Positions 30,001 to 39,000 of a stretch of 64,000 nucleotides of DNA are shown piece by piece. Positions within the stretch are counted from its first letter, which is position 1; every line of letters starts with the position of its first letter. The stretch is from a candidate division WOR-3 bacterium (lineage in GTDB: Bacteria > Hydrothermota > 32-111), in NCBI GenBank assembly GCA_039804105.1, contig JBDRZU010000001.1:736001-800000 (forward strand), given 5' to 3'. Position numbers: made by a program.

Positions 30001-33000
30001 TTGTTTCCCCATTACCATATCGACAAGAAGCATCGACTCATCCCTTGGGAAAATCAAAAGTGTTCTACCGGTTAAATCTCCAAGAAATTTAACAAGAACA
30101 CCTGTTACAATCTCATCCTGGTTATTGATTATCCTGTATATCTCTTCTGAAGATATAATGTGAACCTTTGGAACTGAGACCATCACTCTTTTATTCACAA
30201 GTTGTGAAAGTACTGTTGCAGCATGTCCTCCACCTATATTGGAGATTTCTTTGATTCCATCAAGATGAAAATCTTTTAAGTTGTTAAAATCTATCATAAA
30301 TTACCCCTCTTTAGCCATCGAAACAACACCTGGAACATCAACTATGAAAGATGGCATTCCATTGTTTAAAATTGATACACCTGCAAGCCCATGAATACCT
30401 GATAGTATTCCTTTAAGTGGCTTGACAACTACTTCTGATTGTTCTAAGAAATTATCCACAAGTATCCCATATAAAGAATCCTCAACTTCAACAAGAACTA
30501 TGGAATACTTTTCCCTCTCTTCAATTTTTTCACATTTAAAAATCTTTGATAACCTTATAAGTGGTATTATCTGTTCTCTCAAAACGAATACCTCTTTTTG
30601 CATAATTGTAAATATTTCATTTTTGTTTATATCTATCGTCTCTACAATATGAGTTAAAGGAATTATATAAACCTCACCACTCACTTCGATTATCAAAGTT
30701 TTTATTATAGCGAGTGTCAAAGGAAGTTTTAAAGTGAAAACTGTCCCTTTATCTTTTTGGGATGAGATTTCAAGTGTTCCACCTATCTGTTTTAAAACAT
30801 TGTAAACAGCCCCGACACCCACACCTCTCCCTGAAATATCGTTAACTTCTTCTTTTGTTGAAAATCCTTCATTCATAATCAACGAATAGATATCGCTTTC
30901 ACTAAGATGTTGCAATTTTTCTTCATCTATCAGATTTAAAGACAGGGCTTTTTCTATAATTTTATTCTTATCAAGCCCTTTACCATCATCCGAAACTGTT
31001 ATCAAAACTCCATTTTTGACCCTTTTCGCTTCAAGTATGATTGTTCCAGTTTCATCTTTTTTATTTTTTATCCTTTCCTGTGGAGTTTCTATTCCATGAT
31101 CCACAGCATTTTTTAGAAGATGAAGCAATGGATCAGCAAGTGAATTCAGAATCGCTCGATCAAGTTCAATATCTCTTCCCTTTATTATGAAATTTACTTT
31201 CTTTTTCAACCTGTTTGAAAGATCTCTGATATACCTTGGATATCTATCAAAAACCTGTCCAACAGGAACCATCCTTATCTTCATTATTTCATCCTGAATA
31301 TTCGAGATTATCTTTGAGGTAGAATTGAGAGAATTTATCAATTCCTCATTCTGTAAAGAGTACGCTATCTGTTGCAACCTTCCTCTCGCTATAACAAGTT
31401 CTGAAGCATAATTCTGGAGATTGTCCAGACGTTCGAGTGAAACTTTTATATCCTTTTTTTCTACAACGATTTCCTGATCACTTTTTATTTCATCCTTTAC
31501 AACAAAAGCATCTTTTATCTCAGGTATATTTTTTATCTCTTCAATGACTTTATCAATTTCAGATGTGCCTTTGATATAAACCGTAATCTCATCTTTAAAA
31601 TTCTCCTTCATTATCGAATCATAATCCGGATCACTTTTTATAAAAAGATTGTTATCCTGAAGATTTTTTATTACTACAAAAGCTCTTGCTGATTTTAAAA
31701 CAACATCTTCAGCAAAAATTATTTTTATCGCTTTTTCAGAGGATAAAGATACTTTTTGCACAGGTTTTTTTTCTGCTTTTACTTCCTCAACCTTTTTCGT
31801 TTCTTTAACGATTTCAGAACCAGTTTTAATAGATTCAATTACTTTCAAGAAACTTTTTATGATATTTTCATCAACCTCTTTTTTATGAACAAGAGATTGG
31901 ATATAATCTGTTCCCTTCAAAAGAAGATCTATAAGTTCAGTACTCACCTGTAATTTTTCGTTTCGTATAAGATCCATAACATCTTCAATCGAATGGGAAA
32001 TTTTTGTAATCGAAGAATAGCCCATTGAAGCTGCCATACCTTTTATCGTATGCATCCCTCTGAAAATCGAGTTTATTGCCTCTATATCGTTCATATCCTT
32101 TTCAAGTTTCAAAATAGAATCTGAAACCTGATCAAGGTATTCTTCAGCTTCGCTTATGAACAATTCTTCGTAATTTGTCATACACTATTTTAAATTTAAA
32201 ACTCTGTTCACAGATTCAAGAACCCTTGAAGGTTGAAAAGGTTTAACAACAAAATCTTTGGCTCCCGCCTGAATCGCTTCAACTACAAGTGATTGCTGGC
32301 CCATAGCGGAAACCATCAATATCTTTGCGTTTGGGAACTCTTTTATAATTTCCCTGACAGCATCTATACCTGACATATCAGGCATTATGATATCCATAGT
32401 TACAAGATCCGGCTGTAATTCCCTATACATCTGAACAGCCTGAGATCCTGTCCCTGCCTCCCCACAAATTTCAAAACCTTCCTTTTTCAGAATATCTGCG
32501 ATCATCCTTCTCATAAAAATTGCGTCATCAACGATAAGCACCCTTGTAGCCATATTTTTTCCTCCTAATTTTTGTTGATAATATTTTTCAAATTCAATAT
32601 TATAATCTCTTTACCATCTTTTTCAACAAAACCTTTTATATATTCACCCTCACTCTCTTCATCTTTTACTTTTGATACATTTATTATACCTTCTATTTCA
32701 TCTATTAAAAGTCCATATTTTTCCTTATTGTTTTCACAGATGATTATATAATTTTCCTCAACCTTTTTCATCATTTTTAATTTTTTCTTCAACGAGATCA
32801 AAACAACAACATCACCCCTTAAGTTTATAACACTTTCTATGTAATCTTCAGCGTTTGGAATTCTAATTCCTTTTATTCTCTCATAAATATCTATTATTTC
32901 AGATATTTTTATTCCATATATTTTGCCTTCGATTTTAAATGTTATATACTGTTCATTTTCCATTCTGTTAAATCTCCTTCCATGTGAACTCTATTGGTAA

Positions 33001-36000: not shown

Positions 36001-39000
36001 AACACTATTTTTTATACTTTCAGTTGAATTTTTCGAATAATCTATCAGAACATCAGCAGCTTCGGAAACTATCTGTATCGAAGCGTAAAGTTTGTTTCCT
36101 TTGTCCTCGATCTTTTCTATTTCATCAACTAAACCTTTTTCTTCAATTGAAATCGAAGAGAGTATCGAATGGGCGTTTCTGTTTATTTCAAGAAGTTCAT
36201 CATCATCTATTTTTATAGTTTTCAAAGCATAGATCAACGCTGTTGGATCGAATTCCTCTTCCTGTATTACTCCCTTTCTTTTAAAAAAATTGAAGAAAGA
36301 CATCATATCAAATCCTTTTTAAAAATAAAATATAACATAATAATAAAAATAAATCAATATGGTGGATTTTGAAAAATCAATCTATATTTTGCCTTTTTTC
36401 GACAGAACATTGAAGTGTAAAATCATCTATATACTCAAAATCTGTTCCAAAAGGAATACCTCTTGCAATTGTTGTGATCTTTTCAACTTTGTTCTTCAAA
36501 AGCTTTGTAAGATAAATGGTTGTTGTCTCTCCTTCGGTTGAAGGTGATAATGCTATGATCACCTCTTTTATTTTACCATCTTCAATTCTATTCACAAGTT
36601 TTTCAAAAGATAACTTTTCAGGTGTTATACCATCAAGTGGTGATATCAAACCACCAAGTATATGGTAAAGCCCATTATATCTTTTGGTTCTCTCGAAGAT
36701 GAACAGATCTCGAGGTTTTTCTAAAACCATTAAAATATTCTCATCCCTCTTGTTGTTCGAACAGATACTACATGGGTCTGTTTCATCAACACTCCCGCAG
36801 ATTGAACAAACTTTTATATTCTCTGAAAGTTCAAGTATCGATTCTGACAATTCTTTTGAAAACTCTTTTCCTTTCGAGATCAAAAAGAATATCAACCTTT
36901 CAGCAGATTTCTCACCTATACCTGGAAGTTCTTTTAAATTTTTTTTCAACCGATCAAAACTCGTCATATCAAAATCCCAGCATATTAGGTAACTGGATTC
37001 CACCAGTTATCTTTGCCATCTCTTCCCTGTTTAAAATGTCAACCTTGTTCTTTGCTTCGTTGAATGCTGATTTCAAAAGGTCCGTTATTACAACAGGTTC
37101 CTCGTTTTTCAAAATTTCCTCTGAAACAGTTATATCAACAACTTCATATTTACCATTCATTTTAACATTGACCATTCCACCACCAACACTCGCTTCAACA
37201 ACAGTACTTTTAAGTTTTTCTTCCATCTCATCCATCATCTTTTGCATCTGTTGTGCCTGCTTCATAAGTTTTTTCATGTCCATTTTTCCTCCTAATAGAT
37301 TATCTCTCCATCAAACCTTTCGATTATCTTCAACACATTTTCATTCTTATCAAGTCCTGTACTCAAGATCTGATTATCCTTAGTTTCATTTTTTAAAAAA
37401 ATGATATCAAGTACTATCTTTTCGTTAAAATCTTTTATTAAACCTTTGATCTTTTGATCTTTTAAAACATATTCAAGGGATTCGGGAAAAGAAATTTTTA
37501 TATACTCTTTTTTTCTTTCAATAACATTCCCATTTTCAAGTGCTGTTCCAACAACAGGATCTTTTTTCTTACAGAATTCTATAAATTTTTCAAAAACTAA
37601 ATTCTCTTTCTCCTGTTCAACTTTTTCCACAGTGTTCGAATCAATGTTTTTTGGTGTTACTTCAACTTTTTTTTCGATTTTTGTCTCTGAAAACTTTTTT
37701 TCGTTGAGCAATTTTATTATCTCATCTATATCTCTCCCATCTATCATAAAAGGTATTCTCATCAATTGATTTTCAACAACAATTTTTCTATTGGAGGCAA
37801 ATTTTAATTTATTAGAAAGTTCGATCAACTCCCTTATTATCTGGTTCAAAGTTGTGTTTGAAAAATGTTTTGCTTGATCTTTTGCTTTTTCATACACTTC
37901 AGGGTGTAATGATGATATCTCATCGGTTGTTATATCATTTTTTAAAAGCACAAGATAATGAAAGTAAGTAGCAAACTCTGATACAAAAGTTTCTATATCA
38001 AAGCCCTTAAGCAAAAGTTCCTCAAAACTCTCCACAATACCTTTCAAATCCTTATCCAATATCTTTTGAACGAGTTTAACAAAAAAGTATGTATCGAGAC
38101 GCCCAAAAATCGAATTAACATCATCGTATGTTATCTTTTTATGAACAAGTGCTATCTGGTCAAGCATCGATAACGCATCTCTCATCCCACCATCAGCCAT
38201 TTGAGCGATCAGGTTGAGTCCTTCAACATCATAATCTATCTTTTGATCCTCACAAATTATCTTCAACTGCTTAACTATCTCAGATATTGGCAACCTTTTG
38301 AAATCAAATCTCTGGCACCTTGAAAGTATGGTCGGTATAACATTGAAAGGTTCTGTGGTACAGAATATAAATTTAACATGCTCTGGAGGTTCCTCTAATA
38401 TTTTCAGCAAGGCATTGAATGCCTCTTTTGTTAACATATGAACTTCATCGATAATAAAAATTTTGTTTTTTGCTGAAATTGCGACATATCCAGCTTTGTC
38501 TCTCAAATCTCTTATTTCATCTATCCCTCTATTAGATGCACCATCTATTTCAACAACATCAACATCCCTTCCATTGATTATATCTTTACATGATTTACAT
38601 TTTAAACATGGTTCACCGTTTTCAATATTCTCACAGTTCAAAGCCATCGCAAGAATCCTTGCTGTTGTAGTTTTACCAACCCCCCTTGGTCCTGAAAAAA
38701 GTAAAGCATGAGGTATCCTGTTGTTTTTCACAGCATTCTTCAAAACTTTTACTATATGATCCTGTCCTATAACATCCTCAAACCTCTGAGGTCGATATTT
38801 TCTTGCAAAAACTATATACGTCATATTTTTTCCTTTGTTGATATGGCGGCGGAGATAGAGGCCTTTTACTGCTGCTTCTTTTCAGACCTGACAGGGTTCA
38901 AGACATATCTCCCCGCGTGTTTTTATAATACCATTTATAAAACTATTTTCAAGAAGGAATCAATTCCTGTTTTTCCGCTGTGCTTTTATATGTTCATTGT

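Follow-up and report, generated by a model that had tools for sequence, protein, structure and literature searches.

The first gene of a chemotaxis operon in a candidate division WOR-3 bacterium (Hydrothermota; GCA_039804105.1) encodes a chemoreceptor with a fused solute-binding domain, raising the questions of how such a protein is built, what it might sense and what it might control. We analysed it within a window of 64,000 nucleotides (contig JBDRZU010000001.1, positions 736,001 to 800,000), in which the receptor gene (32968..36306), like all features given below, lies on the reverse strand. From the open reading frame (ORF) list and its translation, the gene, whose coordinates include the stop codon, is a single ORF of 1112 aa with no internal stops, and its description draws on ORF, Pfam, hydropathy and dN/dS evidence. 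The initial annotation had placed the gene at 32968..36303 (1111 aa); the frame stands, while the start is revised, as two ATG codons stand side by side here, the first at 36306 and the second at 36303. Pfam searches recovered MCPsignal (PF00015) above the gathering score (E 2e-29) in two stretches, the best at residues 91-274, and a whole-genome scan, after coordinate conversion, placed the matches at 91-275 and 420-562. Because these matches, at positions 4-171 and 19-161 of 172, both span nearly the whole profile, the receptor has two hairpin tips in place of the one long signalling hairpin originally described. The SBP_bac_5 match (residues 664-1029, E 1.5e-80, 271.5 bits) covers profile positions 2-366 of 368, a complete fold, in agreement with the earlier claim of an entire DppA-like domain fused in cis at the C-terminus. 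From the N-terminus the receptor thus consists of signalling hairpin 1 (~residues 25-306; 35389..36234; Pfam, genome scan and tip alignment), hairpin 2 (~residues 322-612; 34471..35343; genome scan and tip alignment), and a DppA/HbpA-like family-5 "Venus flytrap" domain (~residues 622-1112; 32971..34443; Pfam, NCBIfam and PDB matches) joined to the last helix through a short linker of roughly 10 residues.

Kyte-Doolittle scans in 19-residue windows identified no hydrophobic segment above 1.6, N-terminal or internal, and no export signal; the maximum, 1.49 at residues 751-769, falls within the SBP core; by comparison, each of the other three MCPs encoded in the genome contains 2-4 segments above this threshold, peaking at 2.8-3.05. 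The receptor is therefore soluble, as first proposed, and since it has no membrane segment its SBP domain can only sample the cytoplasm. Comparison with the nearest ortholog gave dN/dS values of 0.026 for each of the two hairpins and 0.038 for the SBP part, indicating strong purifying selection on all three. When the MCP part (residues 1-625) was searched against 120 sampled genomes of the phylum, 42 had a match in a frame of 1043-1139 aa, establishing that the large relatives noticed previously share it. Fifteen protein clusters, at 30-99% identity, share the same architecture, and a metagenome-wide search found both domains in 60 of 78 long representative proteins, among them forms with one hairpin (~820 aa), tandem forms (~1600 aa) and transmembrane ones; the ~1600-aa (hairpin-SBP)x2 proteins have at least two independent origins. 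The MCP-SBP_bac_5 fusion is hence conserved across a phylum, widespread in metagenomes and not rare, which makes it less singular than had been implied. Since it recurs in these clusters and genomes, it is no assembly accident: we found nothing in favour of two genes fused through a sequencing or assembly error, or of a decaying pseudogene, and both are extremely improbable, given the same unbroken frame in the 42 genomes, in 12 loci of independent assemblies and in the 60 representative proteins, and a dN/dS of 0.03. Our literature search returned no paper describing the chemoreceptor-SBP_bac_5 fusion. The accessible passages of one review (PMC8050422) name SBP_bac_5 proteins acting on chemoreceptors only in trans, as separate proteins, as the initial annotation had stated; there the word "fused" does not occur and "fusion" is confined to the reference list.

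Pfam assignments of the same-strand neighbours as CheW, CheY, CheA and CheC, separated by gaps of 3-11 nt, likewise confirmed the receptor as the gene preceding cheW-cheY-cheA-cheC. The cheW gene (32565..32963; Pfam), encoding a single CheW domain in 132 aa, starts 4 nt past the receptor stop, with its AAGGAG inside the last receptor codons. It is followed by cheY (32185..32553; Pfam), by cheA (30301..32181; Pfam; Hpt, P2, dimerisation, HATPase and CheW-like domains), the one cheA gene detected in the genome, and by a cheC-type phosphatase gene (29680..30297; Pfam). Locus comparison extends the operon to a gene for a 902-aa TPR protein (26966..29674), 5 nt past cheC, and then one for a 371-aa DUF4388 protein (25848..26963), both in these positions in 6 of 6 related loci reaching that far. 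Three Roadblock/LC7 (MglB-like) genes (25139-25879, 24798-25142 and 24324-24791) and a gene for a 358-aa TPR protein (23124..24200), the last before rplM-rpsI, complete the series. Upstream, a consensus scan and reading of the DNA revealed a promoter-like site (TTGATT, 17 nt, TATATT with TG; 36329..36357) within the 70-nt gap after recR, although in this AT-rich DNA the scan returned 52 sites against 39 expected; AAAGGA lies upstream of the receptor ATG. A second che cluster, cheR-cheD-cheB-cheW2, is present in the genome, whose three CheW-domain matches (CheA, the 132-aa CheW and a 245-aa CheW) contain one such domain each, giving two CheW proteins. Close loci preserve the order receptor-cheW-cheY-cheA-cheC without exception (7 of 7), and in 34 of 45 carriers the contig with the receptor gene also has cheA, no more than ~5 kb away. 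By hand cross-tabulation, CheA is present in all 45 carriers and the receptor in none of 60 CheA-less genomes. From this gene linkage, the receptor may couple to the CheW and CheA of its operon.

Closer inspection of the two hairpin tips revealed an unequal distribution of canonical residues. Near residue 166, hairpin 1 retains the canonical Asn and the G-x-G-R-G-F turn and lacks the N-arm L-L-x-L, Glu and Arg; near residue 466, hairpin 2 retains L-L-S-L-x-A-S-I-E-A-A-R and is missing the Asn and the turn. When 34 double-hairpin proteins were aligned to the canonical tip profile, conservation in hairpin 1 was 1.00 for the Asn, G73 and G75, 0.94 for F76 and 0.97 for A80, with 0.00-0.09 at the same positions of hairpin 2. 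Conversely, L58 (0.88), L60 (0.85), E65 (1.00) and R68 (0.88) are conserved in hairpin 2, and the corresponding values for hairpin 1 are 0.00-0.15. In these alignments, the conserved tip residues are thus divided complementarily between the hairpins. Hairpin-1 tips all group together, as do hairpin-2 tips, and a single hairpin-1 clade was not rejected (p-AU 0.64). We also scored methylation sites by the consensus [ASTG][ASTG]xx[EQ][EQ]xx[ASTG][ASTG], which matched the three transmembrane MCPs of the genome 4, 5 and 4 times, and neither the receptor nor any of 35 double-hairpin relatives (0/35). The cytoplasmic receptor is therefore probably not methylated, which leaves its earlier designation as methyl-accepting doubtful.

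The division of otherwise invariant MCP tip residues would be explained if the two hairpins folded back on each other and formed one asymmetric four-helix bundle, so that a single chain would stand in for a dimer and each bundle would have one sensor. In all five (hairpin-SBP)x2 proteins compared, the C-arm half of the second tip is more degenerate than that of the first (identity 0.14-0.29 vs 0.39-0.43), and these variants would favour a side-by-side packing of the hairpins. Against the fold-back geometry, compensating core volumes between the two hairpins were looked for and not detected (r = 0.01), and the segment connecting the hairpins is not enriched in Pro/Gly (0.039 vs 0.043 in the arms). 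A different geometry is offered by DosM (Vibrio cholerae VC1403, F9 systems), which is also soluble with two tandem MCP signalling domains in one chain; no other two-domain receptor has been studied, and the shape given for DosM is an extended rod (PMC7534058) across two baseplates (PMC7534058, PMC9321776). A scaffold of this kind would be a homodimer with a tip at each end, connecting the two CheA/CheW layers that enclose a cytoplasmic sandwich array, in which the SBP domains would lie in the middle, and it would accord with four helical arms of similar length (about 140-150 residues), with a pair of CheW proteins, potentially one for each layer, and with the lack of core-volume compensation between the hairpins. 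Yet the triple-CheW adaptor (CheW3) of DosM, a hallmark of F9 systems (PMC9321776), is absent here, where both CheW proteins are single-domain, and the same source, in the passages available, gives 98% of DosM homologues as sensor-less, in contrast to the 490-residue sensor of the present receptor. The tip residues, divided here unlike in DosM, have no obvious reason to be split in two homodimeric tips; a whole SBP domain between the hairpins of the (hairpin-SBP)x2 variants would break a continuous rod; and the distance between the tips ranges from 264 to 324 residues and follows no heptad pattern. On balance we regard the rod as unlikely and prefer the fold-back bundle.

With respect to the ligand, the best PDB relatives of the SBP domain are the glutathione-binding HbpA 3m8u (E 1.8e-65) and then DppA 1dpp (E 9.5e-59), with the alignment to 1dpp covering chain residues 31-497. 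The NCBIfam DppA model NF043070 scored 219.6 bits against a cut-off of 1005, so that the equivalog score was not reached, and the SgrR model 28.2 bits against 476. DppA W386, W405 and D408 align with W990, W1009 and D1012 of the receptor (D1012 codon, 33271..33273), kept in 37, 40 and 39 of 40 double-hairpin forms, respectively, with Asp at the last position also in 23/28 single-hairpin forms and 23/25 free SBPs. We take DppA Asp408 to be the residue holding the N-terminal amine of the peptide, and Arg355 presumably anchors the ligand by its carboxylate; the latter position aligns with Asn or Cys in the receptor, varies among its relatives and is not conserved. Because the Asp and the two Trp lining the DppA pocket are kept and the carboxylate-binding Arg is lost, a peptide or amine ligand is plausible, and our best guess for the small cytoplasmic ligand would be a peptide or another primary-amine compound. 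That a peptide pool steers taxis, as first suggested for imported peptides, is at most a hypothesis: the Arg is not conserved, the DppA model scores far below its cut-off and SBP_bac_5 proteins show no clear ligand preference (PMC10443332, in part). About half of their ligands are peptides (PMC10443332); others include sugars, nickel, glutathione, haem and AI-2 (PMC8050422, PMC10443332).

A non-peptide ligand, such as glutathione or another thiol, a metal chelate, an opine or a sugar, is accordingly a serious, if less probable, contender, in which case the pathway would report redox or metal status in place of the peptide pool. The ranking of HbpA ahead of DppA, the missing Arg355 equivalent and conserved motifs of the receptor family's own (N760, R968 and the stretch 1022-1034) point in this direction, against the share of peptides among known SBP_bac_5 ligands and the conservation of the DppA-typical Asp and Trp residues. 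The conservation of N760 and R968 in fused forms and not in free SBPs, together with the zero methylation sites of a protein that might then be a structural array component, would also fit a domain that no longer binds a small molecule and instead mediates clustering or protein-protein contacts, for example as an array organiser or docking site. We consider this quite improbable, as D1012, W1009 and W990 are conserved as much as in free SBPs, the whole SBP domain is under purifying selection and the Pfam match is full length. No partner ABC permease gene adjoins the receptor gene, whose neighbours are recR and che genes. Under the preferred reading of a peptide- or amine-binding sensor, ligand-driven closure of the SBP domain would pass through the linker to the last helix of hairpin 2, and from there alter CheA activity via the adjacent CheW.

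To relate the pathway to a possible output, we surveyed flagellar, pilus and polarity genes. Neither FliG nor flagellin was found in this genome, which alone is weak evidence as the genome is only 85% complete; FliG, however, exceeded the cut-off in none of 45 carriers, including carriers rated 99-100% complete, and did so in 7 of 120 genomes of the phylum, all non-carriers. Type IV pilus genes are represented by pilB, pilT, pilC, pilN, pilO and pilQ, and an MglA-like GTPase gene adjoins the cheR-cheD-cheB-cheW2 cluster; in distant loci an MglA-like gene lies 3 kb from the receptor gene. Neither marker is specific to the pathway, because PilO occurs in 100 of 120 genomes overall (42/45 carriers) and the MglA-like GTPase in 18 of 60 CheA-less genomes (45/45 carriers and 59/60 CheA-positive genomes). 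The absence of flagellar markers, combined with pili and che-linked MglA-like and Roadblock genes, makes pilus-based polarity control a more likely output than swimming, and swimming taxis is unlikely. The pathway would most likely steer pilus-based movement or cell polarity by an internal metabolite pool, in the manner of the Frz system of Myxococcus xanthus. There, the receptor FrzCD is methylated and FrzE is a CheA-CheY hybrid kinase, unlike the CheA here, which has only the domains listed above and no receiver. Both systems have a cytoplasmic receptor and two CheW-like proteins, and Frz controls the MglA/MglB polarity module in a bacterium with pili and no flagella (PMC5716589, PMC6952110, PMC10329633); the putative counterparts here, from gene linkage, are the three Roadblock/MglB-like genes of the operon and the MglA-like gene by the second che cluster. 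FrzCD has one signalling domain and no SBP domain, whereas the present receptor has two and an SBP.

Other elements of this design also have precedents. Helicobacter pylori TlpD ends in a C-terminal zinc-binding domain. Haloarchaeal MCPs carry SBP_bac_8 as a cytoplasmic C-terminal domain (PMC9680633 Table S5, a census of archaeal chemoreceptors with no SBP_bac_5 entries). In both, the sensor follows the hairpin in a soluble receptor, as here, but a second signalling domain is absent. SgrR/DsvR proteins (HTH plus cytoplasmic SBP_bac_5) provide a precedent for an intracellular family-5 sensor fused to an output module (10.64898/2026.04.01.715812, in part), with a DNA-binding domain in place of a chemoreceptor bundle. 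In Escherichia coli Tap/DppA, a DppA-type family-5 protein also recognises the ligand (PMC8050422 Table 1), but it is separate, exported and docks on transmembrane Tap, whereas here it is fused in cis at the C-terminus of a membrane-free receptor. Finally, DosM belongs to an accessory pathway, unlike the receptor described here, whose pathway is the only one in the genome.

Taken together, we give about an even chance to the full explanation of a cytoplasmic, probably unmethylated receptor with two hairpins and a DppA-like domain that would relay an internal ligand to CheA through a fold-back bundle, with a pilus or polarity output. A narrower reading, more speculative and unlikely as a whole, is that of a single-chain heterodimeric receptor by which the peptide pool of the cytoplasm would be coupled, via an MglA/MglB switch, to the reversal of pilus-driven motility. 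Following an internal duplication, the hairpins would have come to pack as one asymmetric four-helix bundle and to divide the jobs shared by the two identical subunits of an ordinary receptor, one keeping the turn and the Asn and the other the Leu, Glu and Arg contact face, with exactly one SBP sensor per bundle. If so, the one-binding-protein-per-dimer arrangement of Tap-DppA would be reproduced in cis, inside the cell, and the receptor would be an operon-encoded, non-adapting input to the only chemosensory pathway of a flagellum-less phylum.

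The chemoreceptor gene g00711 (window 32968-36306, minus strand) forms a single uninterrupted frame of 1112 codons, in which a Pfam scan identified two stretches of MCPsignal (E 2e-29) and, over residues 664-1029, a complete SBP_bac_5 domain (E 1.5e-80). While these results place the coordinates and domain calls of the initial annotation correctly to within one residue, the one long hairpin described there proved to be two, each MCPsignal match possessing its own hairpin tip. A whole-genome scan resolved two separate matches; they span positions 4-171 and 19-161 of the 172-position profile and convert to receptor residues 91-275 and 420-562, with tips near residues 166 and 466. 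The highest 19-residue Kyte-Doolittle average of the receptor is 1.49 and lies within the SBP core; the other three MCPs of the genome each have 2-4 segments above 1.6. Upstream lie recR, ybaB and dnaX, and directly downstream, on the same strand and separated by gaps of 3-11 nt, are cheW, cheY, cheA and cheC. The cheW ribosome binding site, AAGGAG, is embedded in the 3' end of the receptor coding sequence, whose stop precedes the ATG of cheW by 4 nt (window 32960-32990), an arrangement which suggests that translation of receptor and CheW is coupled. Relative to the nearest ortholog (dS 0.56), dN/dS was 0.026 for each of the two hairpins and 0.038 for the SBP portion. The fusion is a genuine, conserved feature maintained by selection, with strong constraint on all of its parts.

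Using a tip profile built from 17 canonical single-hairpin relatives, two tips were detected in 44 of the stored proteins, one in 42, and three matches in 2. Alignment of 34 double-hairpin proteins (1000-1140 aa) to this profile revealed that the near-invariant residues of ordinary receptor tips are divided between tip 1 and tip 2. Tip 1 retains the Asn (frequency 1.00), the G-x-G-R-G-F turn (two Gly columns at 1.00, Phe at 0.94) and the next Ala (0.97), but the N-arm Leu, Glu and Arg have been lost from it (0.00-0.15). In tip 2 the pattern is inverted: Leu (0.85-0.88), Glu (1.00) and Arg (0.88) are retained, the Asn stands at 0.00, and the turn residues reach only 0.00-0.09. In Tsr numbering, the divided columns are I377-R388 and G393-A400. 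In a tree of the tip region, hairpin-1 tips group together, as do hairpin-2 tips, with two label changes each, and a single clade of hairpin-1 tips was not rejected by the AU test (p-AU 0.64). This separate clustering indicates that the hairpin duplication and the residue split probably predate the spread of the family. Among SBP-less double-hairpin relatives of 343-1094 aa, none covering at least 79% of the MCP part (residues 1-625) was recovered by a shared-word search, which cannot prove absence.

Over its C-terminal 498 residues the receptor resembles family-5 binding proteins of known structure, most closely the glutathione-binding HbpA (3m8u, E 1.8e-65) and next Escherichia coli DppA (1dpp, E 9.5e-59). 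Receptor residues W990, W1009 and D1012 align with W386, W405 and D408 of DppA, the last of which anchors the N-terminal amine of a bound peptide, and a variable Asn or Cys occupies the position of DppA R355. These three residues are kept in 37, 40 and 39, respectively, of 40 double-hairpin forms; D1012 is also kept in 23/28 single-hairpin forms and 23/25 free binding proteins, while conservation of N760 and R968 is seen where the domain is fused and not in the free proteins. Given a score of 219.6 bits against the NCBIfam DppA equivalog, far under its cut-off of 1005, the predicted sensor is DppA-like but not DppA. The only other SBP_bac_5 protein of the genome, 24% identical to the fused domain, is a 703-aa protein (L013:6385-8496 on contig C2, minus strand) with a hydrophobic, lipobox-like N-terminus and a TonB_C end. 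The pairing of SBP_bac_5 with TonB_C in one protein is unusual, and the gene adjoins one encoding a group-1 glycosyltransferase; in distant relatives an SBP-less TonB_C protein is found next to the same type of glycosyltransferase, near the receptor gene. According to a review, SBP_bac_5 proteins show no obvious preference for one kind of ligand, and peptides account for roughly half of those known (PMC10443332).

When 120 genomes sampled from the phylum were searched with just the MCP part, 45 gave a match (E <= 1e-10), 42 of them in frames of 1043-1139 aa and three in short frames or at contig ends. The dimerisation domain of CheA was detected in 60 genomes. Cross-reading the two tables by hand, we found CheA in 45/45 carriers of the receptor, and the receptor in none of the 60 CheA-less genomes; cheA lies on the same contig within about 5 kb in 34 of these carriers. 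Five of the 15 CheA-positive genomes lacking an MCP-part match were sampled, and in each a frame of 1035-1079 aa, identified by the SBP part alone, matches SBP_bac_5; three of these frames adjoin cheA. The 45 carriers therefore represent a lower bound. The order receptor-cheW-cheY-cheA-cheC is kept in 7/7 close loci, and genes for a 902-aa TPR protein and a DUF4388 protein follow cheC in all six loci that reach further.

Fusion of the two families extends well beyond the phylum sample. In a word-indexed search, both Pfam families occurred together in 15 clusters (1081-1605 aa, 30-99% identity). HMMER was also run exhaustively against 1.84 billion representatives and the best 150 were considered, of which 78 new proteins of at least 700 aa were scanned and 70 shorter ones omitted; 60 of the 78 possess both MCPsignal and SBP_bac_5 at E <= 1e-5, including one (P0054) whose MCPsignal falls under the gathering score. 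The relatives adopt four forms: double hairpin plus SBP (about 1014-1140 aa), single canonical hairpin plus SBP (about 800-845 aa), a tandem (hairpin-SBP)x2 arrangement (about 1600-1690 aa, five proteins), and a transmembrane MCP with C-terminal SBP (five proteins). In the SBP-domain tree the double forms fall in one group (43 rows, SH-aLRT 86, not starred), within which the second SBP domains of the tandem proteins P0014 and P0029 are nested; a second tandem type (P0057, P0103 and P0166) has a separate origin within the single forms. In 5/5 tandem proteins the C-arm half of the second tip is the more degenerate. ESM Atlas clusters with both families contain 76, 59 and 52 members, under automatic names including “methyl-accepting chemotaxis sensory transducer” and “ABC transporter substrate-binding protein”, and by automatic atlas assignment the single-hairpin relatives are mostly Bacillota. 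The representative search also returned other unusual SBP_bac_5 fusions (P0042, P0148 and P0164, of 2704-2843 aa, and P0076 and P0107). Among these, P0042 carries BTAD and AAA_16 domains followed by four tandem SBP_bac_5 domains, P0076 a DyP peroxidase followed by two, and P0107 combines SBP_bac_5, Peripla_BP_6 and SBP_bac_3 within one chain.

The statement in the initial annotation that SBP_bac_5 proteins act on chemoreceptors only in trans agrees with a review in which family-5 binding proteins are described as acting in this way alone (PMC8050422). An archaeal census includes SBP_bac_8 as a cytoplasmic C-terminal MCP domain, with SBP_bac_5 not among its entries (PMC9680633 Table S5). Our literature search found no description of an MCP-SBP_bac_5 fusion, and existing censuses, such as that of Ortega et al. 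2017, may already count the architecture. The fusion is widespread in uncultured bacteria and is not a new category; the receptor is a variant of cytoplasmic chemoreceptors, of double receptors of the type of Vibrio cholerae DosM, and of intracellular SBP sensors.

Turning to output, the genome (85% complete) encodes one CheA, one CheR, one CheB and one CheD, and two CheW proteins, of 132 aa in the receptor operon and 245 aa elsewhere. Swimming chemotaxis is an unlikely output. Neither FliG_C nor Flagellin_N was detected in this 85% complete genome, and FliG exceeded its cut-off in 7/120 genomes, none of them carriers; weak sub-threshold FliG matches occur in three carriers, and carriers rated 99-100% complete gave no FliG match. 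Since FliG is present in 7/120 genomes versus 60/120 for CheA, most chemosensory pathways of the phylum occur in genomes without that flagellar marker. Type IV pilus genes are represented by pilB (two copies), pilT, pilC, pilN, pilO and an AMIN-bearing pilQ, and PilO is found in 100/120 genomes and 42/45 carriers.

Beyond cheC the operon (window 23124-29674) continues with the 902-aa TPR gene, the DUF4388 gene (DUF4388 being the PATAN domain), three consecutive MglB-like Roadblock/LC7 genes and a second TPR gene, before rplM. A second che cluster on contig C2 (L014) is ordered DUF4388/TPR-cheR-cheD-cheB-TPR-cheW, a second DUF4388/TPR gene thus standing at its head, and directly adjoining it are side-by-side genes for an MglA-like GTPase (206 aa) and a PilT-like ATPase (367 aa; L015:631-2347). 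A paralogue of the GTPase, 59% identical, directly adjoins one transmembrane MCP gene (about C1:630406-630990). MglA-like GTPases occur in 77/120 genomes, comprising 45/45 carriers, 59/60 CheA-positive and 18/60 CheA-less genomes, and the sole CheA-positive exception is flagellated (G008). In distant loci where the receptor gene is not part of a che operon, a 60%-identical MglA-like gene and a PilT-like gene are located 3 kb upstream. At two loci (L008:3205-6704 and L011:3105-6627) the receptor is divergent from genes for an MglA-like GTPase, biotin carboxylase, PilT-like ATPase and biotin carboxyl carrier protein, and at a third (L010:1247-4147) the carboxylase, PilT-like ATPase and carrier protein genes occur together; it is odd for a motility ATPase gene to be flanked by genes for subunits of acetyl-CoA carboxylase. 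The Frz system of Myxococcus xanthus, as published, pairs a cytoplasmic receptor with two CheW-like proteins, and its target is MglA/MglB. The present pathway resembles it, a likeness drawn here from gene linkage.

By a motif scan with the methylation consensus, the three transmembrane MCPs of the genome contain 4, 5 and 4 matches, while none occurs in the receptor or in 35/35 double-hairpin relatives, and at least one is present in 13/28 single-hairpin forms. Judged from these motifs, the receptor is probably not methylated. Close relatives (P0003-P0013) carry a Lys/Arg cluster at the N-terminus, with a net charge of at least +2 over residues 1-20 in 9/12, reminiscent of the DNA-binding tail of FrzCD. 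Overall the basic patch is found in 12/34 double forms and is absent from distant ones; residues 1-20 of the receptor itself (window 36246-36306) have a net charge of -1.

Two geometries were considered for the double hairpin: a chain folded back on itself as a single-chain “dimer”, and an extended rod like that of DosM. We favour the fold-back, because it explains the complementary split of tip residues, gives one sensor per bundle, and fits the variants in which each hairpin has its own SBP. Chemoreceptor arrays have a 12 nm lattice, from which a rough back-of-envelope packing estimate suggests that one ~55-kDa domain per bundle suits the hexagonal array better than two. Sequence tests did not separate fold-back from rod: the Pro/Gly content and the heptad spacing of the inter-hairpin segment were uninformative, and no core-volume compensation between the hairpins was seen (correlation 0.01 across 36 core columns; the mean had an rms of 14.0, versus 13.9 expected under independent changes). 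The DosM-like rod is the less likely geometry but a plausible one. In the proposed mechanism, binding of a small molecule from the cytoplasm, probably a peptide or other amine, would close the binding domain, and a short linker would relay this closure to the last helix, so that CheA activity may shift via the adjacent CheW. Lacking methylation sites, such a receptor would need ligand turnover or other receptors for adaptation. Sensing of the peptide pool is a reasonable guess.

Chemoreceptors have been studied almost entirely as symmetric homodimers reading the cell exterior. The present family offers a natural receptor with covalently linked halves that have diverged in a complementary way, and could reveal which tip residues serve the “inner” and which the “outer” subunit of the dimer, a question that symmetric receptors cannot directly answer; the single-hairpin relatives may offer a tractable experimental system. 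With a transporter-type binding domain as intracellular sensor, behaviour would track uptake and not the outside. In a poorly known, uncultured and pilus-bearing phylum from hot springs and sediments, the sole chemosensory pathway has this conserved protein as its lead receptor.
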